A DNA stretch of 64,000 nucleotides from Eledone cirrhosa (Eukaryota): contig OZ024745.1 in NCBI GenBank assembly GCA_964016885.1, forward strand, positions 73,160,001 to 73,224,000, written 5' to 3'. The position numbers and the translations under genes were made by a program. A model generated the notes under the pieces. It was not told the origin of the DNA and did not search any database. It saw nothing but the letters and a program-made list of their open reading frames with translations. Below, piece by piece: positions 7,585 to 50,782 of this stretch. Each line of letters starts with the position of its first letter. Position 1 is the first letter of the stretch.

Positions 7585-10500
7585 TCACGGTCGTGTGTCA
7601 TCGCTTTTGTTTGAGAGGTGTAATTGGGAAAGGTCGGCTTTTATCACCTCATCCCAGGTCATCTTGGGTCTCCCCACTTCGCGATTTCCATCGACTTCTA
7701 GTGCTCTGCACCTTTTTCTGCAGCTGTCATCCTTCATACGCATCACATGTCCATACCAATGCAACCGCCTCTCCTGCACACAGCATTTGATTCCTCTTAT
7801 GCTCAGTCTCTCTCTCAATTCATTTATGCTTTGTCGTTCGCGTATATTACTATTACACATCCATCGGAGCATGCAGGCTTCGTTTCTCTCTAATCTACGT
7901 AAGTCTTCCACCTTCAGCGCCCAAACCTCACTACAATGCAACATCGCTGTTCGGATACACGCATCATACAGTCTGCCTTTCATTTTGAGGGAGAAGCCTT
8001 TTGCAACTTGCAGTGGCAGTAGTTCCCTAAACTTCTTCCATCCCGTTCTTACCCTAGTTATTGTACTTTCTGAACACCCACCTCCGCTGCTAATTCGGTC
8101 ACCTAGGTAGCAGAAGCTGTCTACTGTTTCTACAGAGCCCTCCCAGAGATTGGTGGTACTTGTTTCCTGTGGCTGTTTGCTGCTTGCTGTCCCAGCACAG
8201 CTGCTGCACGTGAAGCCTACATTCTTAATTAAGCTTCCTGAGACCCCGCTACATCTCTTGTGTACCCATTGTTTGCATTTGGGGCAGAGCATAGAGTTCC
8301 TACCTACACCTTTCCTACATACTGAGCAAGGCCATTTCCCTGAGGGGATCTGGGTTTTGTTTTCTCGTCTACTTACAAGGACCTTAGTCTTTGTCATGTT
8401 GACTTTGAGACCCTTTCTTTCTAGTCCCTGCTTCCAAGTTTGGAATTTCTTCTCTAGTTCTACCATAGATTCAGCTATAAGTGCGAGGTCATCAGCATAC
8501 AGGAGTTCCCATGGGCATCCAGTCTTAAACTTCTCTGTTATTGCCTGCAGGACTATGATGAACAGGAGGAGGCTAAGAACAGAGCCCTGGTGGACACCAA
8601 CCTGTACGCTAAATTCCTCGCTATACTCATTGCTAATCCTAACTTTGCTGACTGCTCCCCTATACGTGGCTTGTACCGCTTTCACAACCCATTCATCTAC
8701 TCCTAGTTTTCTAAGAGCCCACCAGATTACAGCACGTGGAACTCTGTCAAAGGCTTTCTCGAGGTCGACAAATTCCAGGTAGAGTGGCTTACTTTTAGCT
8801 AGGTACTTTTCCTGTAACTGCCTGACAAGGAAGAGGGCATCAGTGGTGCCTCTTCCTGGTACAAACCCAAATTGCATCTCGTCTAGTTTCACCCGGTCCC
8901 TAATCAACTGTGCTATAACTCTTTCTGTTACTTTCATGACCTGGTCCATCAGCTTTATACCTCTATAGTTTCCTCTATCTAGTGCATCACCTTTACCTTT
9001 GTAGCAGTTGACAATGATGCTACTGCACCAATCTTTTGGTATGTCACTTAGTATTACCTGGTTAACAATACGTGTGGTTATAGTGTGACCTACAGACCCA
9101 GATGCCTTCAGCATCTCGGCAGCTATACCCGATGGACCGGTTGCCTTCCCCATATTCATATCTTTGATTGCCTTACTTACTACGCTGCTGCTGACTTGTA
9201 CTGCTGGCCCCTCTATAGGGTCTACTTGGGGTAGGGTCTCTTCTTCCCATGCATTCTCCTCATTTAGTAATCTATCATAATGACTCTTCCATGCATCTTT
9301 CTTCTCAGCACTTGTGAGGGCAAGCTCACCTTTATCATTCTGGATACACTTCTCTCCAATGACATCACAATTCTCTCTGACACACTGCCTCACAATCTTG
9401 AACACCTCCTGTTTCTGGTCCTCATGTTGCAAAACATGCTTGAATTTTCTATCCTCTGCTTCCCTCCTAGCTAAGTATACTTGTCGCCTAGCTTCCCTCT
9501 TGGTCTCTATGTAATGTACCCTGCTCCCCCCGTTCTTCCATTCTTTCCATGCCTGTCTCTTGGCCTTAACTGCCTCATCTACCTTATTGTTCCACCACCA
9601 AGTCACTCTCCTCCTGCTTGAGGTCTTACTCCAGCCACAGACCTCATCCGTCGCCTCTAGTAAGTTATTTTTTAGGAACTCCCAGTTCTCTTCTACATTG
9701 AATGTCTCCATCTGTTCTTCTTTACTGTCGTAGGCGTTGAGTAAAATATCTTTAAATCTGTTACTGGTTGAGGGGTCTTTCAGCTTCCAGATCTTTCTTC
9801 TCCAGGTTGGCCTCTGTTTCCAGGTTCGTCTAGTTCTGACTGTGAGGTCGCTGACAACTAAGCTATGTTGGGATGTACATTCCTCACTAGGGAAGGCTTT
9901 TGTGTTTATGACCGTCCATCTGTCACGTCCTCTGATGAGGATAAAATCTATCTGACTAGAGTGCTCCCCTGATCTATAGGTGATCAGGTGGTTGTCGGGT
10001 TTTTTGAAGTTTGTGTTACATATCGACATGTCATTGGCGTCGCAGAATTCTAGAAGTCTGAATCCTTCCTCATTTCTTGTGCCAACCCCATGGCCGCCAT
10101 GTACTCTATTGAAGCCGTCGCAGTGTTTACCTACGTGTCCGTTAAAATCTCCTGCGATGATTAGGAAGTCATTGTCGTTTGTTAGAGCAGTAGTGTGCAT
10201 TAGGGACTCGTAAAACCTATCCTTAAGTTCGTCTATCAACTCTGATTGGGGTGCGTAAGCTGATATTATTGTGGTAATTGTTTTATTCAGGACTAGTCTG
10301 AGTTTAATGATTCTTGCATTTACCCTGTACACGGAGATTACTTTATCTCCCCACTTGTCAGCTAGTAGTATACCTACATCACCCATCCCATCGTCATTTC
10401 CCACCCAGAAAAATTTGTAGCACTGACTTTTTTCTACAAGGACTCTAGCAGACTCTCCTCTCCATCTAGTCTCTTGCACACAGCATACATCAATTTCCTT

Positions 10501-10653
10501 TCGCTCTAGCATTTCTATGATTTCTCCTGCTCTTCCTTTCATTGTGCTTACATTGATGGTACCAACTCGGAGTTTTGGGCATTTGTCGACACTCGTAGGG
10601 AAGGGTCTCTGGATTGGCGCTTCACATGGGTGCTTGGTAGCTCGCAGATTCAT
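7585..10653 (-). CDS. RTE APE endonuclease-reverse transcriptase ORF with PHD-like insert; small indels, C-terminal frameshift
   Basis: 1022-aa ORF with GTINV, CVQETRW, AGDFNGH, FVDLEKAFD, LLYADDL, CSVC...CPKC-x4-H-x2-C...CSSC and RLHWYGHVMR. Its end (SNKSDDTRP) departs from the sister copies ([13 protein letters not shown]...). Confidence 0.9.
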   Translation of the reverse strand: MNLRATKHPCEAPIQRPFPTSVDKCPKLRVGTINVSTMKGRAGEIIEMLERKEIDVCCVQETRWRGESARVLVEKSQCYKFFWVGNDDGMGDVGILLADKWGDKVISVYRVNARIIKLRLVLNKTITTIISAYAPQSELIDELKDRFYESLMHTTALTNDNDFLIIAGDFNGHVGKHCDGFNRVHGGHGVGTRNEEGFRLLEFCDANDMSICNTNFKKPDNHLITYRSGEHSSQIDFILIRGRDRWTVINTKAFPSEECTSQHSLVVSDLTVRTRRTWKQRPTWRRKIWKLKDPSTSNRFKDILLNAYDSKEEQMETFNVEENWEFLKNNLLEATDEVCGWSKTSSRRRVTWWWNNKVDEAVKAKRQAWKEWKNGGSRVHYIETKREARRQVYLARREAEDRKFKHVLQHEDQKQEVFKIVRQCVRENCDVIGEKCIQNDKGELALTSAEKKDAWKSHYDRLLNEENAWEEETLPQVDPIEGPAVQVSSSVVSKAIKDMNMGKATGPSGIAAEMLKASGSVGHTITTRIVNQVILSDIPKDWCSSIIVNCYKGKGDALDRGNYRGIKLMDQVMKVTERVIAQLIRDRVKLDEMQFGFVPGRGTTDALFLVRQLQEKYLAKSKPLYLEFVDLEKAFDRVPRAVIWWALRKLGVDEWVVKAVQATYRGAVSKVRISNEYSEEFSVQVGVHQGSVLSLLLFIIVLQAITEKFKTGCPWELLYADDLALIAESMVELEKKFQTWKQGLERKGLKVNMTKTKVLVSRRENKTQIPSGKWPCSVCRKGVGRNSMLCPKCKQWVHKRCSGVSGSLIKNVGFTCSSCAGTASSKQPQETSTTNLWEGSVETVDSFCYLGDRISSGGGCSESTITRVRTGWKKFRELLPLQVAKGFSLKMKGRLYDACIRTAMLHCSEVWALKVEDLRRLERNEACMLRWMCNSNIRERQSINELRERLSIRGIKCCVQERRLHWYGHVMRMKDDSCRKRCRALEVDGNREVGRPKMTWDEVIKADLSQLHLSNKSDDTRP

Positions 10654-11150
10654 ATTTCATCTATTAATTCAGAGTTGCTCAAATTTATTCTCAGCTCATC
10701 CATCCATAACGGTAGGAAAATTCAGGGCTAGAAGAACAGTGGTGGTGGAATAATGGCAGGGTGTGTTGGGCTGGGACAGGGGAGGAGAGAGTTAGTTAGG
10801 TAGTAGTAGCAGAAGAAATGGCATGCTGAGGTTTGATTGGTCGAATAGGCTATGGTGGTGTGTGGGGGTGGGTGGGAGAGAAATTGTGAGGTAGGGAGAG
10901 AGGGTCGCCGTCAAGATGGATGACTGGACCGAAGCCAAATCAACTCTAGTGATTCATTTTAGCCTTTCAGAATAGAGTGTCTTATCTCTTCAATAGCTTC
11001 AAGATGAGTGAGGTGGAATGGGTGAAGAGGTAATGGGTGGCTTAGAGAGGGGGTAGCCATCATAGAGAGAGGGTCGCCGCATGGCAAAGTAGCCGATAGA
11101 ATACCGCATGGCAAAGTAGCGATAGAATACATCAACAATAATATTAATAA

Positions 11151-11548: not shown

Positions 11549-14500
11549 AGAGTGAACGACAGAATAATTAAAATAAGTCTTGTCCTAAATAGAACTACTG
11601 TGACAGTAATATCTGCGTATGCACCCCAATCCGGACTGCCTGGCGCTATAAAAGGCAGATTCTATGAGACATTGATGCTCACTACCTCCCAAATAACTGA
11701 CAGTGACTACATAATTATTGCTGGCGACATAAATGGTCACGTTGAACAACATTGTGACGGCTATGACGGAATCCATGGAGGCTATGGGTTTGGTACTAGA
11801 AATGAGGAAGGCTCCAGAATCCTAGAATTCTGTGACGCAAATAACCTAACTATCTGTAACACTAACTTCAAAAAACGAGACAATCTTTGATCACATATAG
11901 ATCAGGGGAACACGCCAGTCAGATAGATTATATCCTTACCAGAAGACGTGATAGAGAGTGTCTGTTGTAAACACTAAATCCCCCCCCCCCCCCATGAAGA
12001 ATGTACCTCCCAACATACTCATAGTCAGCGACCTCATAGTCAGGACAAGACGTACTCGACAACAGAGGAGGACTATCCTCAGGAGAAAAATATGGAAGCT
12101 AAAGGACTTCACAGCCAGTAATAAATTTAAAAGCATATTACTTGACGCTTTCGACAGTAAGGAAGAGCAATTAGAGTCGTACAATATAGAGGAACAGTGG
12201 GAATTCCTGAAAGCTAACCTGCTGAAGGCGGCAGATGAAGTTTGTGGCTGGAGCAGGCCTATAGGCAGGAGGAGAGTAACATGGTGGTGGAACAGTAAGG
12301 TGGACGAGTCAATTAACGCCAAAAAGCAGGTTTGGAAAGTATGGCAGGATGGGGGAAGTAGAGAAGACTATCAAGTGGCCAGGAGGGAAGCTAGGAGACA
12401 AGTGCACTTCGCAAGAAGGGAAGCAGAGGAAAGAGAGTTCAAGCATGTTCTACAATGTGAGGACCAAGAACGTGAGGTGTTCAGTATTGCTAGGTAATGT
12501 GTCAAGGAAAACTGTGATATTGTTGGGGAGAAGTGTGTCCTTAATGATGATGGTGTACTAGCCATCACTGACGCTGATAAGAAGGTAGGTTGGAAGTGTC
12601 ACTATGAAAGGCTACTAAATGAGGAGAATAAATGGGAGAAAGACAGTCTCCCTCACATCGATCCAATAGAGGGACCAGCAGTGCGAGTTGAAGGTAGTAT
12701 AAGTAAGGCAATCAAAGATATGAAGACGAGTAAGGCGGCTGGGCTTTCGGAAATAGTTGCTGAAATGCTGAAAGCATCTGGAATGGTGGGACATACTATG
12801 GTCACCTGGATAGTAAACCAAGTCATACAGAATGGGGCCGTTCCGAAGAACTGGCGTAGCAGCATCATCATTAACTGCTACAAGTGTAAAGGAGATGCCC
12901 TAGATAGGGGTGACTATAGAGGCATTAAATTAATCAACCAGGTCGTGAAGCTCACAGAAAAAGTAATAGCGCAACGAATCAGAGAGCGAATTGATCTAGA
13001 TGAAATGCAGTTCGGGTTTGTGTCAGGTAAAAGTACCACAGACGCTCTTTTCATTGTACAACAACTACAGGAGAAGTACCTAGCTAAAAGTAAACCCCTA
13101 TACTTAGCTTTTGTTGACTTGGAGAAAGCCTTTGACAGAGTCCCCTGCTCCATTATCTGGTGGGCTCTTAGAAAACTAGGTGTTGATGACTGGCTTGTGA
13201 GAGCTATACAAGCCATGTATAAAGAAACAGTCAGCAAGGTTAGAATTAACAACGAAAATAGTGAAGAGTTTAGCGTAAAAGTTGGTGTTCATCAGGGCTC
13301 TGTTCTTAGCCCCCTACTATTTATTATTGCCCTTCAGGCTATAACAGAGGAGTTCAAGACTGGCTGCCCATGTGAACTCCTATACGCAGATGATCTAACG
13401 CTCATAGCTGAATCAATGGCTGAACTAGAGAAGAAATTCCAAACATGGAAGCATGACCTAGAATCAAATGGCCTTAAAGTTAATTTGTCTAAGACTAAAG
13501 TTCTAGTTTGTAGGAAGGAAAATAGGGCACCGGTCCCATCTGGGAATTGGCCATGCTCAGTGTGTAGGAAAGGAGTAGGCAGAAACTCCATTTTATGTCC
13601 CAAATACAAAGTATGGGTGCATAAAAGATGTAGTGGGGTCACAGGTAAGCTAACTAAGAATATAGATTTTATATGTGGCCGATGCTCTGGTGCAATAAGT
13701 AGCAGCAAGTGCCCACAGAATACTAGCTCATTCCATTGCACAGATGGTTTTATAGAAATAGTGGACACCTTCCATTACCTGGGTGACAAAATCAGCAGTG
13801 GGGGAGGGTGCTCTGAAAGTACAGTAGCTAGAGTCAGAACGGGATGGAAAAAGTTGGCTGCTAAAGGGTTCTCTCTAAAAATGAAAGGCAGGCTGTATGA
13901 TGCCGGCATACGAACAGCAATGTTACATGGCAGTGAGACCTGGGTATTGTGTGCAGAGGATATACGCAGACTAGAGAGGAACGAAGCTTGCATGCTCCGC
14001 TGGATGTGTAATAGTAATATACGTGAACGGGAAAGCATAAACGAACTAAGGGAGAAATTAGGAATAAGAGGGATCAGATGTTGTTTACTCGAGAGAAGGC
14101 TACGTTGGTATGGTCACGTGATGCGCATGAAAGACGACAGTTGTATAAAAAAGTGCAGGGCGATAAAAATAGACGGTAGCCACGGAGTAGGCAGACCCAG
14201 AAAAACCTGGGATGACCTGATAAATTCAGACCTCACACACTTACACCCCTCCAAGACAATGTCACTGGACCGAGATCTTTGGCGCTACACATAATACAGA
14301 AGACCCGCCTTGCCTAAGTACAAAGTGAAACCTACAGTCAGTAGGCACCTCTAACAAAAATACACCCTGTCCCACTACCCCAACCCCATCTACACCACCC
14401 CCTTAGATGTGAAGTTATGTTGGTACCACAACATCCACTCCGAAACAAATGAGGTTGTGTAGGTGTCACGACAAAAAAACACACAGTCCACGCTGTAATG

Positions 14501-15417: not shown

Positions 15418-15640
15418 GTTGCCTATTCACAAGTTGTAACTTCAAATTCAATTCAGATTTCGATCAGTAATATTAATAGTTCCACTGTACAAGTCAGAGA
15501 TTCTCAAGGCAATGAAGTAGAGTTCAATGTTTCTGCCAATAGTACACATTTACAAATTCTATCTCTTCATCCTGGAGATTTATATAATATTACTGCTTTT
15601 AACAATTCTGGTAGTGGTTTCACATGGGAATTCTCCACAT
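15418..15640 (+). CDS. Host gene exon, N-terminal FN3-like domain (phase 0-1)
   Basis: tttacag|...|gtaagt. Open frame VAYSQVVTSNSIQISI...LQILSLHPGDLYNITAFNNSGSGFTWEFST with the FN3 L-x-P-G-x-x-Y motif. 223 nt, joins 17022 in frame. Confidence 0.8.
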
Positions 15641-17021
15641 GTAAGTACCAAGTTATTATTTAAAAATAAAGATAATTCTGTTCACTATTTTTTTTTTATT
15701 GGAATTATGGTGCATTCCATTATATGTATTCAAAACAGTATCTATTTTTCTCAGAAATGTAACAAATCCTTAGTCTTAGAATATTAACACACTATATAAT
15801 CTACACCTAGGTCAGAGCAATATTATGCCTGCACCCTGTGGACAAAACTGCAAAGGTATTTCCATGGACAATGGCTAGTGACACCCTCTGCAACAGCCAC
15901 CCCACCTCATGGAGCTCCTTCCTCAGACGAGCTGCTAATGTTCTGATTTTATGGAGGAGCTTAGCTGTATGGGGTCCAAGGACACATGAGGTCTTGACAG
16001 CAACTAGTCTGAGAAGAAAACTATTGAGAATAGTTTAACATTTCATGTTTGAATGTTGTCTCAAATGTTAATCAAGGGAATGTTATAGTAATGCTAATTT
16101 GAAATAAGTTTAAAAAATTAAATAGATATTTACGATGATTATCATTTTCAATTTAAATTGTTTCTGATTTAAAAATTATACATTTGGACAATATATTTAA
16201 TAAAGTTACTATCTGTTATTTCATTAATGAACATGTATAGAGTAATGAAAAAAGACTCCTTCCTGGATATGGGACTGGGTGGGGGGAAATATTAAATGTA
16301 TAAACAGCAATGTCAGCATCTGCTTATAATAGCATTTTGAGGAAAAAAATTCATATGCTTTGCTACTTACATGAAAAATGGATGAACCCAGGTCTTTGCT
16401 GTTCATATTTTTGTTGTTGATAATTTGATAAATTGCAGTTTTTAGCTCTATGTCAGCTCTAGCTTAGCAGACCTCTGATCAAAGGATTTACAACCATGAT
16501 CATTATTAGTCATAGTGTATTTTGGACTACATTAATTTATGTATCCTGCTTTCTTTTTCCTTTTTGTTTTAAAGATAGCAAAGTGTCATTTGAAGGAAAT
16601 TTGGCTTTGTAATGTTAGTTGGTGTAGGGTAGAAAAGCAGGATAATTGTTCCAAAGATTGCAGTTCTGAAGAGGAGGGACTATGAAAAGTATTTAGTATT
16701 GATTCTGAAACATGAAATAAAGTGTGACAGTAAGTAGTTTTTAGTAGGAAATGCATTAGATTTATCAAGTTTTCAAGAACAAAAGCCATCATTATAATGG
16801 TTAAGGTGTCAAAGGGACACATTGAAATTAGAGTTAGGGATTGACATATTGTGATCTATTCATTATCTCAAACAGTGCTCCATTGTGAAATGCATTATGA
16901 TTAATTATCTGTAAACAGTACTCCATTGTGAAATGCATTTTCACAACTGATTTGCTTTCAATTACTTTTTTTTTCTAAAGTAACATTAGGAAGTCATATT
17001 GTTTTATTTTATTTCTTACAG

Positions 17022-17288
17022 TTCCATTGAAACCAACTAATGCCATCGTTACAAATGTTAAAACAAATAGTTCTACTATTGAATGGAAATTTAACGACAC
17101 AGCATCTTCTGGAAGTGAATGGTTAATTCAATACAAATATGGTAGCAATAATTACATAAATGAAACAAGTACCAAGGAAAACATAATATTAACCTCCTTA
17201 AGACCTGGTGAAAAATATGAAGTAAAAATATGGACTAAATCTAACAATAAACTCAGTGACTCAGATTTGAACACAAGTTTTGTTACTA
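17022..17288 (+). CDS. Host gene FN3 exon, array unit 1
   Basis: cttacag|ttcc...acta|gtaagt; 267 nt, phase 1-1; PLKPTN...IEW...LRPGEKYEVKIWT. Confidence 0.9.
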
Positions 17289-18154
17289 GTAAGTATATGA
17301 AGTGAAACTTTCTAAGATGTTTAAAATAGCTTATAAAAGATATTTTTTTAATATATTATGGCTTTTACCTAGGAAAAAATCTTTCCATATTTGATCCGAA
17401 ATCTTCAGTTAATGAAGAACCAAAACTATTGTTAATGTTTTTCAGTTTAGTGTTTCTGTTTTTGTGGCAGAACATCATATCTTTCACTTTCTCTGGCATA
17501 TAAAATCTCATAATCTACAGGTATAACTAGGTGGAAAAAAGTGCCCAGCCCACACTGTAAAGTTTTTTACGTGTCACAACAAAAATCACCTTGTCTACAC
17601 TGTAAAGGTGGTTGGCATTAGGGAGGGCATCCAGCTGTAGAAACCAGGCAAGAGACAGTTCAGTATGAGCAAGACATGGTCATCTGATCTAGCTTGTCTT
17701 ATAGCTGAACATGTCTAACCCATACTAGCATGGAAAAATAGTTGTTAAAAGGTGATGATAATGATATCTCCTGTAATGTTCTGTGGACAGTCTTCATTTG
17801 AATGTTAATTTAATGTTTCATATATGATATTAAATCTACATATGTCTATGTAACAGAATGCCAATAGTATCATTCTTTTGACAGTATATTTTGTATAAAG
17901 AGAGAACAAATAGTCCAACCCATGCCAACATGGAAAATTGGATGTAAAGTTAACATGATTAAATGTTGATAATTTAGATTAAAATTATATGTTTCTGAAT
18001 CTGAGAATCAGATTTCATATATTTAATCATTATTATTGAAAGTAATGTTATTGTATTAAAATCATGTTTTTACTTTAGAATAATGTAAATAATCAAACTG
18101 CAGGTTTCTCCCATAACATTGTGAAGTCATATTGTTTTATTTTATTTCTTACAG

Positions 18155-18421
18155 TTCCATTGGCACCAACTAATGCCATCGTTACAATTGTTACAACAAA
18201 TAGTGCTACTATTGAATGGAAATTTGACAAGACAACATCTTCTGGAAGTGAATGGTTAATTCAATACAAATATGGTAGCAATAATTACATAAATGAAACA
18301 AGTACCAAGGAAAACATAATATTAACCTCCTTAAGACCTGGTGAAAAATATGAAGTAAAAATATGGACTAAATCTAACAATAAACTCAGTGACTCAGATT
18401 TGAACACAAGTTTTGTTACCA
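18155..18421 (+). CDS. Host gene FN3 exon, array unit 2
   Basis: Same splice sites, 267 nt, open frame, FN3 W and LxPGxxY motifs. Confidence 0.88.
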
Positions 18422-19287
18422 GTAAGTATATGAAGTGAAACTTTCTAAGATGTTTAAAATAGCTTATAAAAGATATTTTTTTTATATATTATGGCTTTTA
18501 CCTAGGAAAAAATCTTTCCATATTTGATCCGAAATCTTCAGTTAATGAAGAACCAAAACTATTGTTAATGTTTTTCAGTTTAGTGTTTCTGTTTTTGTGG
18601 CAGAACATCATATCTTTCACTTTCTCTGGCATATAAAATCTCATAATCTACAGGTATAACTAGGTGGAAAAAAGTGCCCAGCCCACACTGTAAAGTTTTT
18701 TACGTGTCACAACAAAAATCACCTTGTCTACACTGTAAAGGTGGTTGGCATTAGGGAGGGCATCCAGCTGTAGAAACCAGGCAAGAGACAGTTCAGTATG
18801 AGCAAGACATGGTCATCTGATCTAGCTTGTCTTATAGCTGAACATGTCTAACCCATACTAGCATGGAAAAATGGTTGTCAAAAGGTGATGATAATGATAT
18901 CTCCTGTAATGTTCTGTGGACAGTCTTCATTTGAATGTTAATTTAATGTTTCATATATAATATTAAATCTACATATGTCTATGTAACAGAATACCAATAG
19001 TATCATTCTTTTGACAGTATATTTTGTATAAAGAGAGAACAAATAGTCCAACCCATGCCAACATGGAAAATTGGATGTAAAGTTAACATGATTAAATGTT
19101 GATAATTTAGATTAAAATTATATGTTTCTGAATCTGAGAATCAGATTTCATATATTTAATCATTATTATTGAAAGTAATGTTATTGTATTAAAATCATGT
19201 TTTTACTTTAGAATAATGTAAATAATCAAACTGCAGGTTTCTCCCATAACATTGTGAAGTCATATTGTTTTATTTTATTTCTTACAG

Positions 19288-19554
19288 TTCCATTGGCACC
19301 AACTAATGCCATCGTTACAATTGTTACAACAAATAGTGCTACTATTGAATGGAAATTTGACAAGACAACATCTTCTGGAAGTGAATGGTTAATTCAATAC
19401 AAATATGGTAGCAATAATTACATAAATGAAACAAGTACCAATGAAAACATAATATTAACCTCCTTAAGACCTGGTGAAAAATATGAAGTAAAAATATGGA
19501 CTAAATCTAACAATAAACTCAGTGACTCAGATTTGAACACAAGTTTTGTTACTA
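19288..19554 (+). CDS. Host gene FN3 exon, array unit 3
   Basis: Same splice sites, 267 nt, open frame. Confidence 0.88.
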
Positions 19555-20420
19555 GTAAGTATATGAAGTGAAACTTTCTAAGATGTTTAAAATAGCTTAT
19601 AAAAGATATTTTTTTTATATATTATGGCTTTTACCTAGGAAAAAATCTTTCCATATTTGATCCGAAATCTTCAGTTAATGAAGAACCAAAACTATTGTTA
19701 ATGTTTTTCAGTTTAGTGTTTCTGTTTTTGTGGCAGAACATCATATCTTTCACTTTCTCTGGCATATAAAATCTCATAATCTACAGGTATAACTAGGTGG
19801 AAAAAAGTGCCCAGCCCACACTGTAAAGTTTTTTACGTGTCACAACAAAAATCACCTTGTCTACACTGTAAAGGTGGTTGGCATTAGGGAGGGCATCCAG
19901 CTGTAGAAACCAGGCAAGAGACAGTTCAGTATGAGCAAGACATGGTCATCTGATCTAGCTTGTCTTATAGCTGAACATGTCTAACCCATACTAGCATGGA
20001 AAAATAGTTGTTAAAAGGTGATGATAATGATATCTCCTGTAATGTTCTGTGGACAGTCTTCATTTGAATGTTAATTTAATGTTTCATATATGATATTAAA
20101 TCTACATATGTCTATGTAACAGAATGCCAATAGTATCATTCTTTTGACAGTATATTTTGTATAAAGAGAGAACAAATAGTCCAACCCATGCCAACATGGA
20201 AAATTGGATGTAAAGTTAACATGATTAAATGTTGATAATTTAGATTAAAATTATATGTTTCTGAATCTGAGAATCAGATTTCATATATTTAATCATTATT
20301 ATTGAAAGTAATGTTATTGTATTAAAATCATGTTTTTACTTTAGAATAATGTAAATAATCAAACTGCAGGTTTCTCCCATAACATTGTGAAGTCATATTG
20401 TTTTATTTTATTTCTTACAG

Positions 20421-20687
20421 TTCCATTGGCACCAACTAATGCCATCGTTACAATTGTTACAACAAATAGTGCTACTATTGAATGGAAATTTGACAAGACA
20501 ACATCTTCTGGAAGTGAATGGTTAATTCAATACAAATATGGTAGCAATAATTACATAAATGAAATAAGTACCAAGGAAAACATAATATTAACCTCCTTAA
20601 GACCTGGTGAAAAATATGAAGTAAAAATATGGACTAAATCTAACAATAAACTCAGTGACTCAGATTTGAACACAATTTTTGTTACTA
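20421..20687 (+). CDS. Host gene FN3 exon, array unit 4
   Basis: Same splice sites, 267 nt, open frame. Confidence 0.88.
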
Positions 20688-21553
20688 GTAAGTATATGAA
20701 GTGAAACTTTCTAAGATGTTTAAAATAGCTTATAAAAGATATTTTTTTTATATATTATGGCTTTTACCTAGGAAAAAATCTTTCCATATTTGATCCGAAA
20801 TCTTCAGTTAATGAAGAACCAAAACTATTGTTAATGTTTTTCAGTTTAGTGTTTCTGTTTTTGTGGCAGAACATCATATCTTTCACTTTCTCTGGCATAT
20901 AAAATCTCATAATCTACAGGTATAACTAGGTGGAAAAAAGTGCCCAGCCCACACTGTAAAGTTTTTTACGTGTCACAACAAAAATCACCTTGTCTACACT
21001 GTAAAGGTGGTTGGCATTAGGGAGGGCATCCAGCTGTAGAAACCAGGCAAGAGACAGTTCAGTATGAGCAAGACATGGTCATCTGATCTAGCTTGTCTTA
21101 TAGCTGAACATGTCTAACCCATACTAGCATGGAAAAATGGTTGTCAAAAGGTGATGATAATGATATCTCCTGTAATGTTCTGTGGACAGTCTTCATTTGA
21201 ATGTTAATTTAATGTTTCATATATAATATTAAATCTACATATGTCTATGTAACAGAATACCAATAGTATCATTCTTTTGACAGTATATTTTGTATAAAGA
21301 GAGAACAAATAGTCCAACCCATGCCAACATGGAAAATTGGATGTAAAGTTAACATGATTAAATGTTGATAATTTAGATTAAAATTATATGTTTCTGAATC
21401 TGAGAATCAGATTTCATATATTTAATCATTATTATTGAAAGTAATGTTATTGTATTAAAATCATGTTTTTACTTTAGAATAATGTAAATAATCAAACTGC
21501 AGGTTTCTCCCATAACATTGTGAAGTCATATTGTTTTATTTTATTTCTTACAG

Positions 21554-21820
21554 TTCCATTGGCACCAACTAATGCCATCGTTACAATTGTTACAACAAAT
21601 AGTGCTACTATTGAATGGAAATTTGACAAGACAACATCTTCTGGAAGTGAATGGTTAATTCAATACAAATATGGTAGCAATAATTACATAAATGAAATAA
21701 GTACCAAGGAAAACATAATATTAACCTCCTTAAGACCTGGTGAAAAATATGAAGTAAAAATATGGACTAAATCTAACAATAAACTCAGTGACTCAGATTT
21801 GAACACAATTTTTGTTACTA
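21554..21820 (+). CDS. Host gene FN3 exon, array unit 5
   Basis: Same splice sites, 267 nt; protein identical to unit 4. Confidence 0.85.
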
Positions 21821-22686
21821 GTAAGTATATGAAGTGAAACTTTCTAAGATGTTTAAAATAGCTTATAAAAGATATTTTTTTTATATATTATGGCTTTTAC
21901 CTAGGAAAAAATCTTTCCATATTTGATCCGAAATCTTCAGTTAATGAAGAACCAAAACTATTGTTAATGTTTTTCAGTTTAGTGTTTCTGTTTTTGTGGC
22001 AGAACATCATATCTTTCACTTTCTCTGGCATATAAAATCTCATAATCTACAGGTATAACTAGGTGGAAAAAAGTGCCCAGCCCACACTGTAAAGTTTTTT
22101 ACGTGTCACAACAAAAATCACCTTGTCTACACTGTAAAGGTGGTTGGCATTAGGGAGGGCATCCAGCTGTAGAAACCAGGCAAGAGACAGTTCAGTATGA
22201 GCAAGACATGGTCATCTGATCTAGCTTGTCTTATAGCTGAACATGTCTAACCCATACTAGCATGGAAAAATGGTTGTCAAAAGGTGATGATAATGATATC
22301 TCCTGTAATGTTCTGTGGACAGTCTTCATTTGAATGTTAATTTAATGTTTCATATATAATATTAAATCTACATATGTCTATGTAACAGAATACCAATAGT
22401 ATCATTCTTTTGACAGTATATTTTGTATAAAGAGAGAACAAATAGTCCAACCCATGCCAACATGGAAAATTGGATGTAAAGTTAACATGATTAAATGTTG
22501 ATAATTTAGATTAAAATTATATGTTTCTGAATCTGAGAATCAGATTTCATATATTTAATCATTATTATTGAAAGTAATGTTATTGTATTAAAATCATGTT
22601 TTTACTTTAGAATAATGTAAATAATCAAACTGCAGGTTTCTCCCATAACATTGTGAAGTCATATTGTTTTATTTTATTTCTTACAG

Positions 22687-22953
22687 TTCCATTGGCACCA
22701 ACTAATGCCATCGTTACAATTGTTACAACAAATAGTGCTACTATTGAATGGAAATTTGACAAGACAACATCTTCTGGAAGTGAATGGTTAATTCAATACA
22801 AATATGGTAGCAATAATTACATAAATGAAACAAGTACCAAGGAAAACATAATATTAACCTCCTTAAGACCTGGTGAAAAATATGAAGTAAAAATATGGAC
22901 TAAATCTAACAATAAACTCAGTGACTCAGATTTGAACACAATTTTTGTTACTA
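22687..22953 (+). CDS. Host gene FN3 exon, array unit 6
   Basis: Same splice sites, 267 nt, open frame. Confidence 0.88.
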
Positions 22954-23819
22954 GTAAGTATATGAAGTGAAACTTTCTAAGATGTTTAAAATAGCTTATA
23001 AAAGATATTTTTTTTATATATTATGGCTTTTACCTAGGAAAAAATCTTTCCATATTTGATCCGAAATCTTCAGTTAATGAAGAACCAAAACTATTGTTAA
23101 TGTTTTTCAGTTTAGTGTTTCTGTTTTTGTGGCAGAACATCATATCTTTCACTTTCTCTGGCATATAAAATCTCATAATCTACAGGTATAACTAGGTGGA
23201 AAAAAGTGCCCAGCCCACACTGTAAAGTTTTTTACGTGTCACAACAAAAATCACCTTGTCTACACTGTAAAGGTGGTTGGCATTAGGGAGGGCATCCAGC
23301 TGTAGAAACCAGGCAAGAGACAGTTCAGTATGAGCAAGACATGGTCATCTGATCTAGCTTGTCTTATAGCTGAACATGTCTAACCCATACTAGCATGGAA
23401 AAATGGTTGTCAAAAGGTGATGATAATGATATCTCCTGTAATGTTCTGTGGACAGTCTTCATTTGAATGTTAATTTAATGTTTCATATATAATATTAAAT
23501 CTACATATGTCTATGTAACAGAATACCAATAGTATCATTCTTTTGACAGTATATTTTGTATAAAGAGAGAACAAATAGTCCAACCCATGCCAACATGGAA
23601 AATTGGATGTAAAGTTAACATGATTAAATGTTGATAATTTAGATTAAAATTATATGTTTCTGAATCTGAGAATCAGATTTCATATATTTAATCATTATTA
23701 TTGAAAGTAATGTTATTGTATTAAAATCATGTTTTTACTTTAGAATAATGTAAATAATCAAACTGCAGGTTTCTCCCATAACATTGTGAAGTCATATTGT
23801 TTTATTTTATTTCTTACAG

Positions 23820-24086
23820 TTCCATTGGCACCAACTAATGCCATCGTTACAATTGTTACAACAAATAGTGCTACTATTGAATGGAAATTTGACAAGACAA
23901 CATCTTCTGGAAGTGAATGGTTAATTCAATACAAATATGGTAGCAATAATTACATAAATGAAATAAGTACCAAGGAAAACATAATATTAACCCCCTTAAG
24001 ACCTGGTGAAAAATATGAAGTAAAAATATGGACTAAATCTAACAATAAATTCAGTGACTCAGATTTGAACACAAGTTTTGTTACTA
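23820..24086 (+). CDS. Host gene FN3 exon, array unit 7
   Basis: Same splice sites, 267 nt, open frame. Confidence 0.88.
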
Positions 24087-24951
24087 GTAAGTATATGAAG
24101 TGAATCTTTCTAAGATGTTTAAAATAGCTTATAAAAGATATTTTTTTATATGATATGGCTTTTACCTAGGAAAAAAATCTTTTCATATTTGATCCGAAAT
24201 CTTCAGTTAATGAAGAACCAAAACTATTGTTAATGTTTTTCAGTTTAGTGTTTCTGTTTTTGTGGCAGAACATCATATCTTTCACTTTCTCTGGCATATA
24301 AAATCTCATAATCTACAGGTATAACTAGGTTTAAAAAAGTGCCCAGCCCACACTGTAAAGTTTTTTACGTGTCACAACAAAAATCACCTTGTCGACAATG
24401 TAAAGGTGGTTGGCATTAGGGAGGGCATCCAGCTGTAGAAACCAGGCAAGAGACAGTTCAGTATGAGCAAGACATGGTCATCTGATCTAGCTTGTCTTAT
24501 AGCTGAACATGTCTAACCCATACTAGCATGGAAAAATAGTTGTTAAAGGTGATGATTATGATATCTCCTGTAATGTTCTGTGGACAGTCTTCATTTGAAT
24601 GTTAATTTAATGTTTCATATATAATATTAAATCTACATATGTCTATGTAACAGAATACCAATAGTATCATTCTTTTGACAGTATATTTTGTATAAAGAGA
24701 GAACAAATAGTCCAACCCATGCCAACATGGAAAATTGGATGTAAAGTTAACATGATTAAATGTTGATAATTTAGATTAAAATTATATGTTTCTGAATCTG
24801 AGAATCAGATTTCATATATTTAATCATTATTATTGAAAGTAATGTTATTGTATTAAAATCATGTTTTTATTTTAGAATAATGTAAATAATCAAACTGCAG
24901 GTTTCTCCCATAACATTGTGAAGTCATATTGTTTTACTTTATTTCTTACAG

Positions 24952-25218
24952 TTCCATTGCCACCAACTAATGCCATCGTTACAAATGTTACAACAAATAG
25001 TTCTACCATTGAATGGAAATTTGACAAGACAACATCTTCTGGAAGTGAATGGTTAATTCAATACAAATATGGTAGCAATAATTACATAAATGAAACAAGT
25101 ACCAAGGAAAACATAATATTAACCTCCTTAAGACCTGGTGAAGAATATGAAGTAAAAATATGGACTAAATCTAACAATAAATTCAGTGACTCAGATTTGA
25201 ACACAAGTTTTGTTACTA
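24952..25218 (+). CDS. Host gene FN3 exon, array unit 8
   Basis: Same splice sites, 267 nt, open frame. Confidence 0.88.
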
Positions 25219-26087
25219 GTAAGTATATGAAGTGAAACTTTCTAAGATGTTTAAAATAGCTTATAAAAGATATTTTTTTATATGATATTATGGCTTTTAA
25301 CTAGGAAAAAAATCTTTCCATATTTGATCCGAAATCTTCAGTTAATGAAGAACCAAAACTATTGTTAATGTTTTTCAGTTTAGTGTTTCTGTTTTTGTGG
25401 CAGAACATCATATCTTTCACTTTCTCTGGCATATAAAATCTCATAATCTACAGGTATAACTAGGTGGAAAAAAGTGCCCAGCCCACACTGTAAAGTTTTT
25501 TACGTGTCACAACAAAAATCACCTTGTCGACACTGTACAGGTGGTTGGCATTAGGGAGGGCATCCAGCTGTAGAAACCAGGCAAGAGACAGTTCAGTATG
25601 AGCAAGACATGGTCATCTGATCTAGCTTGTCTTATAGCTGAACATGTCTAACCCATACTAGCATGGAAAAATAGTTGTTAAAAGGTGATGATTATGATAT
25701 CTCCTGTAATGTTCTGTGGACAGTCTTCATTTGAATGTTAATTTAATGTTTCATATATAATATTAAATCTACATATGTCTATGTAACAGAATACCAATAG
25801 TATCATTCTTTTGACAGTATATTTTGTATAAAGAGAGAACAAATAGTCCAACCCATGCCAACATGGAAAATTGGATGTAAAGTTAACATGATTAAATGTT
25901 GATAATTTAGATTAAAATTATATGTTTCTGAATCTGAGAATCAGATTTCATATATTTAATCATTATTATTGAAAGTAATGTTATTGTATTAAAATCATGT
26001 TTTTATTTTAGAATAATGTAAATAATCAAACTGCAGGTTTCTCCCATAACATTGTGAAGTCATATTGTTTTATTTTATTTCTTACAG

Positions 26088-26354
26088 TTCCATTGCCACC
26101 AACTAATGCCACCGTTACAAATGTTACAACAAATAGTGCTTTTATTGAATGGAAATTTGACAACACAGCATCTTCTGGAAATGAATGGTTAATTCAATAC
26201 ACAAGTAATTTTGGCAGTTCCAAAAATATAACAAGTCACATGAAAAATATAACATTACAAATATCAGACGATGGTGCGAGATACAAAATAAATATATGGA
26301 CCATGTCTTACAATGTAACCAGTGAAAAATCTTTAAACACATCTTTTATTACTT
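26088..26354 (+). CDS. Host gene FN3 exon 9 (5' half array-like, 3' half unique)
   Basis: cttacag|...actt|gtaagt, 267 nt. Matches the array up to EWLIQY, then reads TSNFGSSKNITSHMKNITLQISDDGARYKINIWTMSYNVTS. Confidence 0.9.
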
Positions 26355-29396: not shown

Positions 29397-29520
29397 TTCC
29401 TAATCAAGTTTCTGATGTTAAAATGGATCCTATTGAAAGAAATATTACAGTTACTTGGCTCAAACGTAAAACATTTACTTATACAGTTTGTTTAACTGAT
29501 CTAGCTGATTGTGTTCTAAG
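29397..29520 (+). CDS. Host gene exon, first half of an FN3 domain (phase 1-2)
   Basis: ttttcag|ttcct...ctaag|gtaagt; PNQVSDVKMDPIERNITVTWLKRKTFTYTVCLTDLADCVL. Confidence 0.82.
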
Positions 29521-34575: not shown

Positions 34576-34691
34576 GAACAACAATAATTACACATTTCGC
34601 AACCTGATAGCTGGAAAAAAATACACTGTTTCTATTACTGTGCATTCTTATTCTCGAAACAGCAGTGTATATAAAATATCTAAAATAATTC
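34576..34691 (+). CDS. Host gene exon, second half of an FN3 domain (phase 2-1)
   Basis: ttttag|gaac...attc|gtaagt; NNNNYTFRNLIAGKKYTVSITVHSYSRNSSVYKISKII. The phase matches 29520. Confidence 0.85.
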
Positions 34692-35107
34692 GTAAGTCTT
34701 TGATAAAAATCTTACCATTGTTAATATTACTAAATGTGATTCAACACAATAATACTAACTTGAATATTAATTACTTAGAAGACTGAACTCTTGTTTCAAC
34801 ATCATAATGTAAGGCAGTATGTTGCCAATATCATATTTTATATTGAATGAATAGTTTCTATGATTTTCAAATACTTGTTATATGTCCTGTAAATTCTTAA
34901 AGGTGGCCTTAATTTGAAATTTTAAGGTCAAATTCGTTTTTACATAATTACATAATTTAAGTACAGCTGAAATTTCATAGCAAAATTATTTTTAACAACT
35001 TTTCTTACATGTATACTAAAATATGGATGAATGTTGATAAAGATATATTTTATTTCTCTTGTGACAGTGAGAGAGGAGGATATTAAATACATTTTCTATT
35101 TTTACAG

Positions 35108-35374
35108 CTCCATTGCCACCATCTCGTGTGATTAATGCAAGTATTACAAATAGTGTACTTTTCCTGGAATGGGATTTTAATGCCAATATATCTGTTGTTA
35201 GTGAATGGATTATTGAATACAAAATTGAAACTGTGAACAATTACACTAGTGTTAAAACAAACCTCACAAGCATACAATTAAAATTAACCGATGGTGTGGC
35301 ATATCAGTTTCGAATATGGACTATATCTCTTAATGTGACCAGTACATCTAATTTAACTTTTGGCCTTTTCACTG
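35108..35374 (+). CDS. Host gene FN3 exon (267 nt, phase 1-1), diverged paralog of the array exons
   Basis: tttacag|ctcca...actg|gtaagt; PLPPSRVINASITNSVLFLEWDF...SEWIIEY...DGVAYQFRIWTISLNVTS. Confidence 0.9.
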
Positions 35375-35599
35375 GTAAGTTATATTCCTTTATTCTCTTA
35401 CTAGTTTCAACAACAGGAAGAGAATGTAAATAATAGTAAGCCTCTCCCTTCTATGAACTGCCTTTATTACATTACCTTAAATAAATGGAGACTATAGATC
35501 AGTGAGGGCTGTTTAGTGTTGCAGAGTACAGGGAAACTTCACTAATATTTATACCTCAATAAAATACATCAAGTACAGCCTGTAAATTGGTCAGTGATA

Positions 35600-36830
35600 G
35601 GAATGGCATTCCTAACATGTCTAGGAAAACAGTAATTTATAATGCACAGAAATGATCAGCACCATCTACAGTTAATTCCACTGGGACCTTCTTTATTCAG
35701 ATTTCTCTGAGATGTTGCCACAAGAAATCTTAGCTAAATATTAGGTCTGAACACAGATTCCTCAAAATGCTGAACCCTATGGTAATGTATGACTGTTTAT
35801 TAAGGTTAAGGGTTAGGTCTACAATAGTATAGCCTTTAGAACTGGAATTTAATGTTTTCTGAACCTTAGTAATATATTTACTGTACAAGTAAACCTTTAA
35901 TTTTAGAACCTGCACAGCTTTCTTGCTATGGTAATAATAAATGCTGCAGGAATCTAATAGAACACTTGACCTTTTTCTATTCACTATCACAGAGGTTGCA
36001 GCTTGAATAAGTCCCTGTGGTACATGAATACATGTGGCCTGTATATGAAAGTTGACTACTGTCATTATTGAGCTTGACAATGCCTTGGGTTTGCACAGAG
36101 GAGCATAATATTCTTTCTTCAATATGTATTGCAAATAACTTTGCATACTGGACAGTTATTTTGTAGATAAGAGAAACCATAAAAGAGATATTTCTGTCTC
36201 ATATTGTAAGAGGTCATTTCATCTAGTTCCTTTCAAGCAACTGGAAATTTACAATAATGTGTATACATCATTACTGGGCTGATTTATGCCTAACACTGAT
36301 GCTTGATTATAAGTAGTTTGGTGGCCCAGAATAATTCTTTCTAAGAGGAGCTAGCAAATTGCAAGTAAGACTACAACAGCAATGTATACATTATGCATTG
36401 CCTCATTACCACTTCGCTCTGTGCTACAATCCCAGAAGATGAAGTCTCTCATTAGTTTCTCCATCTCTGAAAAATTCATTCTAGGTTTCTTTTGGTTTTG
36501 GTTACCTAGTAGTTAGTAAATGTCCAGCTGAAACCTTTTAGGGGAGTTTTCACATATAAGCTGTCCAATTTAGAAATGGCTAATTTAAAATTCTCAAACC
36601 CTTCAACATATTCAAAGATACTGGATTTTATGCAGCTTAATAGAGTCCTGTATTTATTCAGCGTTTTGTCCTAATAGTTTTTCAAAGTAAGCTAGCCATT
36701 GTTGCTACATCCTGGCAGTTGTCCTGCAAGCTAGAGCCAGTGTCTAACCTTTTAAGGATTCATATCATTTCCTTTTTTGATATTAAGTTGAATAAATTGT
36801 AATGAAAACAAAACTTGGTGACTGCTTTTC
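35600..36830 (-). mobile_element. Decayed Ty3/Gypsy-like gag-protease remnant
   Basis: Minus strand has a degenerate double zinc knuckle (CPVCKVICN...YYAPLCK) followed by aspartic-protease-like VIVNRKRSSVLLDSCS ... LCSDLIF. Confidence 0.5.
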
Positions 36831-37689
36831 AATCTTCATTCAACTTGACTGTATAGTTACGGTCTAGTTTTACATAATTTAATTTCACAATTTATAACAT
36901 AATCTATACAACAGAATATTATGGCACATAGCATTCCTGTTTTAACTATGGAAACCCATATTACTACACACTAATTAATAGTAACATTATAAGCATGTAA
37001 GTTTTAAATTAACTAATACTATCATTTCATAAACAAAACTTATGAAATATGTTAGGAAGCTCAGTGCAATGAAACATGTAGAATATGAAGTCATTAGCAT
37101 GGATCCTAGTGCACTAAGATATTACAGCCTTTAGTTATAATTCCTTTTTATAGAGGATGGGGATCAGTCACATTTCTTAAACAGTCATACAATGTGGTTA
37201 TTGTAACCGTGTACTAGTACACTATGTTTATGTATTCCACAGTAAATAGGAAATAAATTTTGCCAAAGACTTGGAAATAGATCTAACTGTAATGTTACAA
37301 TGATAGCCATACAATATATTCTAGCAGCTACTGACCTCACTTTCAGGACATCATAGATATGCCTTTGCTTCAGTTTTTTTCCTCCCACTGTTATTGAACA
37401 CTTACTATGCTTGGTTTTGTCTCTTTAACTGCTCATTTTCTTGTATCATTATAGACTTTTTGTACAATACAAAATGAGTTGATGAGCAAAAGCTTTGCCC
37501 AACTTAAAATATTGTACACACACACACAAACACATATATACCTGAAATTTGTAAACAGGCTACAGCTAATTGCCAGTCACTCTAACTTCTAACATTTCAA
37601 CTTGAATCTCTCTCTTTAATGACCACTAGTATGACTTCCTTAAAATAAGATCTATTGGAAACCTACTCCTAGTTGTTACTCACCTTTGG

Positions 37690-40839: not shown

Positions 40840-40970
40840 CTCCTGAGAAAGTATTGAATATTACTCATGTTGAAAATAATACTCACTTATCAATTCATTG
40901 GTCGCCTCCTCTACAATCTGATATTACAAAATACATTCTCGAGTATTCTGAAACATGCTGGAAACATAAA
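40840..40970 (+). CDS. Host gene exon, first half of an FN3 domain (phase 1-0)
   Basis: cattttag|ctcct...cataaa|gtaagt; PEKVLNITHVENNTHLSIHWSPPLQSDITKYILEYSETCWKHK. Confidence 0.85.
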
Positions 40971-45575: not shown

Positions 45576-45591
45576 TATATATATATATAGA

Positions 45592-45645
<54 letters not shown>

Positions 45646-45646
45646 C

Positions 45647-45696
<50 letters not shown>

Positions 45697-45737
45697 ATAT
45701 ATGTATATATGTATATATGTATATATATATATATGTA

Positions 45738-45783
<46 letters not shown>

Positions 45784-45958
45784 ATATATATGTATATATA
45801 TATATTTATATATATGTGTATATATGTATATATATATGTATATATATATATTTATATATATGTATATATATGTGTATATATGTATATATATATGTATATA
45901 TATATATTTATATATATATATGTATATATATATATTTATATATATATGTATATATATA
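45576..45958. repeat. (TA)n/(TATG)n microsatellite
   Basis: Seen directly. Confidence 0.97.
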
Positions 45959-48900: not shown

Positions 48901-49600
48901 ATTAGGAAGTCCTTGTCGTCTGTTAGAGCAGTAGTGTGTATTAGGGACTCGTAAAACCTATCCTTAAGTTCGTCTGACAGCCCCGATTGGGGTGCGTAAG
49001 CTGATATTATTGTGGTAATTGTCTTATTCAGGACTAGTCTGAGTTTAATGATTCTTGCATTTACCCTGTACACTGAGATTACTTTATCTACCCACTTGTC
49101 AGCTAATAGTATACCTACACCACCCATCCCATCGTCATTTCCCACCCAGAAAAATTTGTAGCACTGGCTTTTTCCTACAAGGACTCTAGCAGACCCTCCT
49201 CTCCATCTAGTCTCTTGCACACAGCATACATCAACTTCCTTTCGCTCTAGCATTTCTACGATTTCTCCTGCTCTTCCTTTCATTGAGCCTACATTGATGG
49301 TACCAACTCGGAGTTTTGGGCATTTGTCGACACTCGTAGGGGAGGGTCTCTGGGTTGGCGCTTCACGTGGGTGCTTGGTAGCTCGCAGATTCATATTTCA
49401 TCTATTGATTCAGAGTTGCTCGTGTATTCCCAGCTCATCCATCCATAACGGTGGGAAAATTGAGGGCTAGAAGGACAGTGGTGGTGGGGTAATGGCAGGG
49501 TGTGTTGGGATGCGCCAGAGGAGGAGAGAGTTAGTTAGGCAGGTAGTAGCAGCAGCAGCAGTGGAAATGGCATGCTAGGTTTGATTGGTCGAATAGACTA
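45959..49600 (-). mobile_element. RTE family B copy 2, complete ORF region with one frameshift; embedded in TA microsatellite
   Basis: ORFs 48405-49394 and 46274-48346 are collinear with the 1022-aa ORF. One extra T in a homopolymer at ~48408-48414. (ATG)n tail abuts (TA)n and the 5' end runs into (TA)n. Confidence 0.95.
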
Positions 49601-50154
49601 TGTATATATATATATTTATATATATATATGTATATATATATATGTATATATATATATTTATATATATGTGTATATATGTATATATATATGTATATATATA
49701 TATTTATATATATGTGTATATATGTATATATATATGTATATATATATATGTATATATATATATGTATATATATATATTTATATATATGTGTATATATGTA
49801 TATATATATGTATATATATATATTTATATATATATATGTATATATATATATGTATATATATATATTTATATATATGTGTATATATGTATATATATATGTA
49901 TATATGTATATATATATGTATATATATATGTATATATATATTATATATATGTGTATATATATATATGTATATATATATGTATATATATATTATATATATG
50001 TGTATATATATATATTTATATATATGTGTATATATATATGTATATATATGTGTATGTATATATATATGTGTATATATATATGTGTATATATATATGTGTA
50101 TGTATATATATGTGTGTATATATGTGTATATATATATGTGTATATATATATGTG

Positions 50155-50185
<31 letters not shown>

Positions 50186-50240
50186 GTATATATATATGTG
50201 TATATATATATATGTGTATATATATGTATATATATATGTG

Positions 50241-50271
<31 letters not shown>

Positions 50272-50469
50272 GTATATATATGTATATATATATATATACA
50301 TATACATGGACACACTGGAAGAGGAAGACCAAGGTTAACATATGTTGATGCCCTAAGGACAGACACTGGTCTGTTGGAGACGCAGGATATGGCAGCGATA
50401 ATGAGGGACAGAGACCGCTGGAGAGAACTCGTCCATGGATCTCGGGAATTTTACCTGCCTTAGATAGAT

Positions 50470-50509
<40 letters not shown>

Positions 50510-50782
50510 ATATATATATATATGTATATATATATGTGTATATATATGTATATATATATGTATATATATATGTGTATATATATGTATATATATATGTATA
50601 TATATATGTGTATATATATGTATATATATATGTATATATATATGTATATATATATGTATATATATATGTATATATATATGTATATATATATATGTATATA
50701 TATATATGTATATATATATATGTATATATATATGTATATATATATGTATATATATATATGTATATATATATATGTATATGTA

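Follow-up and report, generated by a model that had tools for sequence, protein, structure and literature searches.

Tandem near-identical fibronectin exons in a Ptp10D-like receptor phosphatase gene of Eledone cirrhosa, and their number in three gene copies

The stretch of DNA analysed here, 64,000 nucleotides of chromosome C5 of the octopod Eledone cirrhosa (hereafter the window), contains a tandem array of nine exons that is real and intact and encodes a portion of a receptor's outer arm. The gene is an octopod Ptp10D-like receptor protein tyrosine phosphatase (PTP) of the R3 type, and the window holds one of three assembled copies, here called A, B and C, whose arrays differ in length. An earlier note, made from the letters of this stretch, had suggested that copy-number variation or alternative splicing might tune the length of the receptor; the first part of that suggestion was borne out between gene copies, which carry nine, 14 and three array exons, and the second part was not, as described below. 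It is therefore likely that the length of the arm differs by gene copy and not by a choice made in splicing. In the explanation that we favour, with a probability of about 0.58, a symmetric exon encoding a fibronectin type III (FN3) domain was duplicated in tandem together with its intron, unequal crossing-over and gene conversion altered the number of units in each of the three gene copies, and all units are spliced in series, which would yield receptors of three arm lengths.

All nine array exons are 267 nucleotides long, have phase 1-1, lack stop codons, and are preceded by CTTACAG and followed by GTAAGT. The earlier note had described them in these terms and had given every unit 1133 bp, which was found to be too uniform, the spacing being 1133 bp six times and then 1132 and 1136 bp. 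Units 1-8 differ from one another by 0-25 substitutions, with no difference between units 4 and 5 across 1133 bp, and exon 9 differs from exons 1-8 at 67-69 of 267 sites. A last exon of the exon 9 type is present once in each of the three gene copies. Array exons 1 and 2, the two array-type exons tested against the Pfam fn3 profile, scored 34.0 and 34.5 bits with a cut-off of 25, and exon 9 scored 22 bits, below that cut-off. Array exon 2 was modelled (pLDDT 88.6) as a sandwich of seven strands whose best matches in the PDB are FN3 domains (TM score 0.86). A protein search with a single array exon against longer proteins scored none of 130 candidates. Each of the eight array introns carries the same high-copy repeat, its core motif lying at 17607, 18740, 19873, 21006, 22139, 23272, 24405 and 25540. 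In the amplified inner units (18155-24086) several replacement changes delete N-glycosylation sequons, of which these domains have 0-2 each compared with 4-8 in the end units.

It is very improbable that the assembler multiplied one or two units to create such an array. The identity of units 4 and 5 means that the count could be off by one, whereas seven of the eight units are distinct and each of the three arrays has variants and a period peculiar to it. Furthermore, read depth, which the earlier note had proposed as a check on the array, was even: in DNA runs X1-X3, which come from one sample, perhaps the assembled animal, the contig depth per assembled copy was 10-15 and alike inside and outside the array in six of six contigs (exon 2, intron 2 and array), contig depth being no measure of copy number. 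Reads of other animals, from the RAD-seq run X5, covered the array sparsely.

The exons flanking the array that the earlier note had listed, starting at 15418, 29397, 34576, 35108 and 40840, do join in frame; all five have AG/GTAAGT borders and form one open frame with the array. The exon model was built on the Octopus vulgaris protein, as a homologue-free de novo exon scan was too noisy, and its order is colinear with that protein from the signal peptide to the tail. In all three copies the signal-peptide exon matches the O. vulgaris N-terminus, which is a match of sequence and not the output of a signal-peptide predictor. At E<0.1, seven of eight exons tested matched Pfam fn3, and two of them exceeded the cut-off.

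A DNA search of the 3.0-Gb genome with one exon gave 26 matches, every one on chromosome C5, and all 26 array exons are open across the copies, four of those in copy B being 264 nucleotides long. Over a region of 664 kb, exons that are single in copies A, B and C are 98-100% identical among them, and the collinear introns are ~99% identical. In each copy the frame is open from the signal exon through every ectodomain exon as far as the juxtamembrane domain, with one loss: copy B lacks the 35108 exon through a clean in-frame deletion of 2.08 kb (34861-36942 of the window), and the exon is retained in the Octopus orthologues. The predicted ectodomains before the PTP_tm exon are 1157 (A), 1509 (B) and 623 (C) amino acids long and comprise 14, 18 and 8 FN3-type domains, respectively, the juxtamembrane one included. 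An FN3 domain is ~3.5 nm long, and the arms, if extended, would therefore measure roughly 49, 63 and 28 nm. The array units cluster by gene copy. The array of copy B has a higher-order pattern in which a 264-nucleotide exon is followed by four or five 267-nucleotide exons, duplicated blockwise, and its exons 3-7 and 8-12 differ at 7 positions over 4.5 kb. Such copy-specific groups and the block duplication are the expected products of unequal exchange, which is why we propose this mechanism.

The identity of the gene was established from copy B, 160 kb from the window, which continues into a PTP_tm exon (PF18861, 43.5 bits), a membrane exon and six PTP exons. It has a single PTP set, and no second PTP domain was found in the 664-kb region around the copies. 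The named proteins closest to copy B are Octopus and Argonauta Ptp10D-like proteins, and its PTP domain is 77-78% identical to that of Octopus Ptp10D-like. In a midpoint-rooted PTP tree, for which 16 proteins were chosen and 15 contributed its 22 rows, copy B grouped with octopod Ptp10D-like proteins (support 100/100) inside the R3 clade (98/96). Its tail has YHN after the PTP domain, corresponding to the R3 YxN motif, and its FN3 exons are bordered by phase-1 introns. Thus, the guess of the earlier note that this is an R3 receptor phosphatase proved correct, and the homology search that it had recommended for the product led to the same family. The catalytic loop HCSAGVGRTG and the Q loop QTDEQY of copy B are intact, and the branch of its PTP domain is 0.16 long, about twice that of the Octopus orthologues. 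The juxtamembrane domain (L021:9131-9589, minus strand) contains a basic motif, KSKR, that Octopus shares and that has a similar counterpart in Argonauta; it is possibly a processing site.

We considered whether copy A represents the other haplotype of the cluster that contains B and C, kept in the assembly as an inverted contig, so that nine versus 14 (or three) exons would be an allelic polymorphism like that of LPA KIV-2. This is unlikely. It would agree with the position of copy A, alone in a 165-kb contig between gaps, with the PTP region being single in the assembly, and with the nearly equal distances among the copies (105, 102 and 81 intron changes private to one copy, among 21,462 sites), which are near the allelic range. 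In contrast, the kilobase around the signal exon of copy A (C5:73150482-73151495) is 85% identical to B and C, compared with 98-99% in the gene body, and the outer flanks cannot be aligned. Moreover, the per-copy depth resembles that of unrelated single contigs (roughly 7-13 for most of them), and a second sample carries both A-type and B/C-type exon letters. Downstream of the signal exon of copy A, identity to B and C jumps to 98% after a 1.4-kb insertion, and this sharp step is a conversion or recombination boundary. Because of the 85% identity followed by 98% after the insertion, an older inverted paralogue homogenised by conversion fits copy A better than a plain allele does. A two-base variant at 15517-15518, which alters one residue of exon 2, was present in DNA run X2 and in run X4 (described below) and in none of the three assembled copies; therefore, at least a fourth haplotype exists.

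The earlier note had remarked that the window holds no transmembrane or PTP domain, and copy A has neither anywhere in the assembly. Searches of the assembly with the membrane/PTP region gave a single match each, one of them a full match accompanied by a 47-base match elsewhere. No PTP_tm, membrane or PTP exon was found 3' of the last FN3 exon of copy A, in 46 kb of contig and 56 kb past the gap, and no PTP exon turned up beyond either of the gaps that copies A and C run into. Copy A could therefore be a truly truncated duplicate, either a recent pseudogene or the source of a secreted ectodomain acting as a decoy, which we regard as quite unlikely. The depth in run X2 would suit truncation: the median contig depth of the membrane region was 33.5, 19 and 40 in X1, X2 and X3 (the last scaled from repeat bins), corresponding to ~2.8, 1.4 and 2.9 copies. 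The values for X1 and X3 do not suit it, nor do the several variant clusters and the 481-bp indel among the DNA contigs of this region, the wholly open frame of copy A, or the transcription of window-type exons. In addition, copies A and C both end within the same 20-kb repeat-filled intron, where C stops at a gap and A reaches a gap through repeats. The contig depth weakly suggests that the membrane/PTP regions of the other copies were collapsed in the assembly; those of copy A may have been collapsed or left unassembled, and we infer that copy A is a full receptor with membrane and PTP exons.

Splicing of the array was followed in run X4, a second sample of unrecorded kind that was taken as RNA-like because of its exon-only cover and GT..AG joints: its contigs cover exons and repeats and not unique intron. 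Two contigs join position 15640 to position 17022 at GT..AG, and another contig reads past the end of an array exon for eight letters, which are those at the start of an array-type exon. X4 also holds letters exclusive to window exons 2-8, and the window-type array is therefore transcribed. The earlier note had named transcripts that never include the array exons as an outcome that would speak against it; the X4 contigs show array exons spliced. A 1585-nucleotide contig joins the PTP_tm and membrane exons, with a 5' extension that equals the three preceding exons by length only. The summed contig depth was 872 at 17061 and 90.3 on this PTP_tm/membrane contig. The ratio of 9.7 can be compared with 8.7 expected for full inclusion with three equally expressed copies and ~2 for a choice of one exon among many, and it is a weak hint that most exons are chained, since contig depth does not measure RNA level.

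An alternative in which cassette exons are skipped or chosen per transcript, so that one gene gives many lengths, or one exon among many in the manner of Dscam, is improbable. Every exon is symmetric with intact splice sites, which would permit it, and in one X4 joint exon 15418 is followed by an array exon with five differences from window exon 1 in 57 sites. This joint is compatible with a skip to window exons 2-7, and it fits equally well the array exon that comes first in copy B or last in copy C, so that some exon skipping is possible. No skipping joint could be distinguished in X4, and the idea of the earlier note that splicing tunes the length was not upheld. The depth ratio likewise lies close to full inclusion and far from 2, near-identical introns and splice sites offer little by which exons could be distinguished, and the three listed O. 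bimaculoides isoforms vary at the tail only, in a gene model that lacks the array. A mutually exclusive array is unlikely also because Dscam-type arrays contribute one divergent exon per transcript, whereas in E. cirrhosa the exons are nearly the same and the depth suggests that a transcript includes many of them.

There is moderate evidence of diversifying selection on the arm, and purifying selection on it is not visible. The mature ectodomain exons common to the three copies carry 17 replacement changes and no silent ones (P 0.009-0.017), and with the 35108 exon added there are 20 replacement changes to 1 silent (P 0.024-0.045). The signal exon was left out because its copy A version is an older sequence; with it included, the test against a background of 21 kb of intron, from which columns near gaps and in AT runs had been removed, gave P 0.01. 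In the array, the 15 of 23 units with alignable introns have 16 replacement to 2 silent changes (P 0.0065 against introns and silent sites). A first test on 23 units (48 replacement, 6 silent, P 0.93 against introns) was discarded because its intron set was badly aligned, and a test with nine of 12 flanks, three being excluded for insertions (P 0.00015), was superseded by the 21-kb background. If selection is diversifying, it would most likely be imposed by ligands or pathogens.

Orthologues in other octopods, where the earlier note had proposed to look, carry their own recent repeats in the same region of the arm. These Ptp10D-like proteins (O. vulgaris CAI9718161.1; O. sinensis XP_036370794.1; O. 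bimaculoides XP_014781630.1 and LOC106883510; Argonauta hians GAB1597278.1 and GAB1597277.1) resemble the E. cirrhosa gene in signal peptide and domain order, and their PTP domains are 71-78% identical to it. They differ in the unit that is amplified, which is a single exon in E. cirrhosa and a two-domain unit in Octopus and Argonauta, where the 'B-type' FN3 domain (exons 29397 and 34576) was duplicated jointly with the array-type domain. Three gene copies with differing counts are a feature of E. cirrhosa. O. vulgaris and O. sinensis have three close copies of a 170-amino-acid two-domain unit, and Argonauta has at least five units of 171 amino acids with 163-170 residues identical (95-99%). 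In a tree of the repeats, the O. vulgaris units form their own clade (100/99), as do those of Argonauta (100/100); therefore, the expansions were separate, or the repeats were homogenised within species. Near-identical exon arrays break gene models, and the O. bimaculoides and Argonauta orthologues are each annotated as two pieces.

Similar blocks were found in two frog proteins with an FN3 arm and one PTP domain, Hyla XP_056384175.1 and Leptodactylus KAM3920260.1, whose near-identical FN3 blocks have periods of 175 and 276 amino acids in the annotated proteins, which were not checked against reads; they were detected by 15-mer counts, self-BLAST giving none. Such expansion of R3-type phosphatases is therefore not unique to octopods. 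A 10D-like R3-type phosphatase of the starfish Asterias has a recent internal amplification, probably of HYR domains, and its 79-amino-acid repeats were not counted as an FN3 parallel for that reason. We found no published description of this locus, and no paper on the fibronectin arm of Ptp10D in octopus or on FN3 repeats of PTPs that evolve in concert, subscription journals being mostly outside the coverage of the search.

R3 phosphatases, including Drosophila Ptp10D and Ptp4E and vertebrate PTPRB/J/H/O/Q, share with the E. cirrhosa gene an FN3-only arm, mostly 1:1-phase exons, a long juxtamembrane domain, one PTP domain and a YxN tail, and FN3 number varies among members (PMC5336234). The accessible text of that paper describes no near-identical exon arrays, no length series of young paralogues and no mollusc. 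LPA KIV-2 also consists of near-identical in-frame tandem exon and intron units, and protein size is set by genomic copy number (PMC7613587); its 5.6-kb unit, in 1-40 copies, has been proven to be polymorphic, with many alleles, in a single secreted protein (PMC7613587). In E. cirrhosa the differences are among gene copies of a receptor. In molluscs, the SudRes1 receptor phosphatases of Biomphalaria sudanica are likewise replacement-rich paralogues in a cluster, with gain and loss of extracellular domains, and are linked to parasite resistance (PMC12297450). They belong to a different subfamily, with EGF and galactose-binding ectodomains and tandem PTP domains, and by analogy with this cluster a fast-changing arm of variable length may fit conflict with pathogens or ligands (PMC12297450).

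With regard to function, the length of CD45 varies through splicing of mucin exons, and we know of no CD45-type contact system in cephalopods. CD45 and CD148 are, like the E. cirrhosa product, receptor phosphatases with large ectodomains, and exclusion at a 15-nm gap was ~20% for CD45R0 and 40-50% for CD45RABC (PMC6170634). By analogy, arm length could grade exclusion at contacts, affecting the reach of the phosphatase or its push-out from them.

Several observations weigh against the explanation that we favour. All three predicted arms are longer than the 15-nm CD45 gap (PMC6170634), and length may therefore not be the selected trait; in addition, repeat number is equal in O. vulgaris and O. 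sinensis. The replacement excess over introns, which have 1.35% change per site, is 1.6-fold (P 0.06). Conversion from the divergent end exons inflates the result for the 15 alignable units, changes within a conversion tract are not independent of each other, and no excess is seen in window units 2-7 taken by themselves (5 replacement, 1 silent and 15 intron changes). No X4 contig crosses more than one array junction, the depth runs are split over the membrane region, and the membrane/PTP exons of copy A were not found in the assembly, where the PTP_tm and PTP exons are single. Finally, loss of the aspartate of the WPD loop normally cripples PTP catalysis, and in copy B, the sole assembled PTP domain, the loop reads WPG (C5:72908914-72908769, minus strand), in contrast to WPD in seven of seven relatives checked, Octopus and Argonauta among them. 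The only proteins with a reported change in WPD are PTPRQ and certain R3 members of deuterostomes (PMC5336234, accessible text). The WPG reading may stem from an error in a base; otherwise the domain is possibly a phosphatase that is naturally dead or traps its substrate.

Receptors 98-99% identical with a more than two-fold spread of arm length would form a natural series for studying size exclusion of phosphatases outside vertebrate immune cells. The R3 family, symmetric FN3 exons and copy-number variation of coding exons are each already known. The R3 ectodomain has expanded separately in frogs and in three octopod lineages, which suggests that selection on its length or surface has acted on it repeatedly. 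A more ambitious version, which we consider doubtful, is that octopods have independently and repeatedly lengthened the arm of the single R3 phosphatase that they have, and that E. cirrhosa co-expresses a size series of 8, 14 and 18 domains under diversifying selection, the WPG member being a trapping or dead form. If true, the series would be an invertebrate counterpart of the CD45 length isoforms, derived from gene copies and not from splicing.

Table 1. Coordinates of the gene copies, exons and repeats; positions are those of the window unless preceded by C5 or given in Mb.
Feature	Position	Strand	Remarks
Copy A (array within window)	window C5:73160001-73224000	+	9 array exons
Copy B	73.003-73.020 Mb (array C5:73003208-73019564)	-	14 array exons
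Copy C	72.79 Mb	-	3 array exons
Signal-peptide exon of copy A	C5:73151387-73151452		8.6 kb upstream of window start; 22 codons
Second coding exon, first FN3-like domain	15418..15640	+	phase 0-1; joined to array exon in run X4
Tandem array, 8 exon+intron units and more divergent ninth exon	16981..26354	+	units 1132-1136 bp
Array FN3 exon 1	17022..17288	+	phase 1-1; 4 N-glycosylation sequons; fn3 profile match
Array FN3 exon 2	18155..18421	+	fn3 profile match; structure model
Array FN3 exon 3	19288..19554	+
Array FN3 exon 4	20421..20687	+	unit identical to unit 5
Array FN3 exon 5	21554..21820	+
Array FN3 exon 6	22687..22953	+
Array FN3 exon 7	23820..24086	+
Array FN3 exon 8	24952..25218	+
Array FN3 exon 9	26088..26354	+	5' end resembles exons 1-8; remainder ~25% divergent
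First half of split 'B-type' FN3 domain	29397..29520	+	phase 1-2
Second half of split 'B-type' FN3 domain	34576..34691	+	phase 2-1
FN3 exon	35108..35374	+	phase 1-1; in copies A and C, deleted from copy B
First part of last ordinary FN3 domain	40840..40970	+	phase 1-0
Other two exons of last ordinary FN3 domain	C5:73247024-73247101, C5:73250626-73250689		outside window
High-copy interspersed repeat, probably like a short interspersed element (SINE)	17530..17740	+	inside each of 8 array introns; very high read depth
Young long interspersed element (LINE) type, reverse transcriptase	7585-10656	-	open 1023-codon frame with endonuclease
Young LINE type, reverse transcriptase	46274-49397	-
Young LINE type, reverse transcriptase	59929-62085	-
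Young LINE type, reverse transcriptase	12498-14294	+

Among the other features of the window, three of the four LINE-type elements encode a PHD finger after the reverse transcriptase. The intron 3' of exon 40840 contains TA-type microsatellite tracts of up to 2 kb (49599-57718, 45576-45959 and 62735-63317), and five tandem units of 91 bp are located at 58725-59184.

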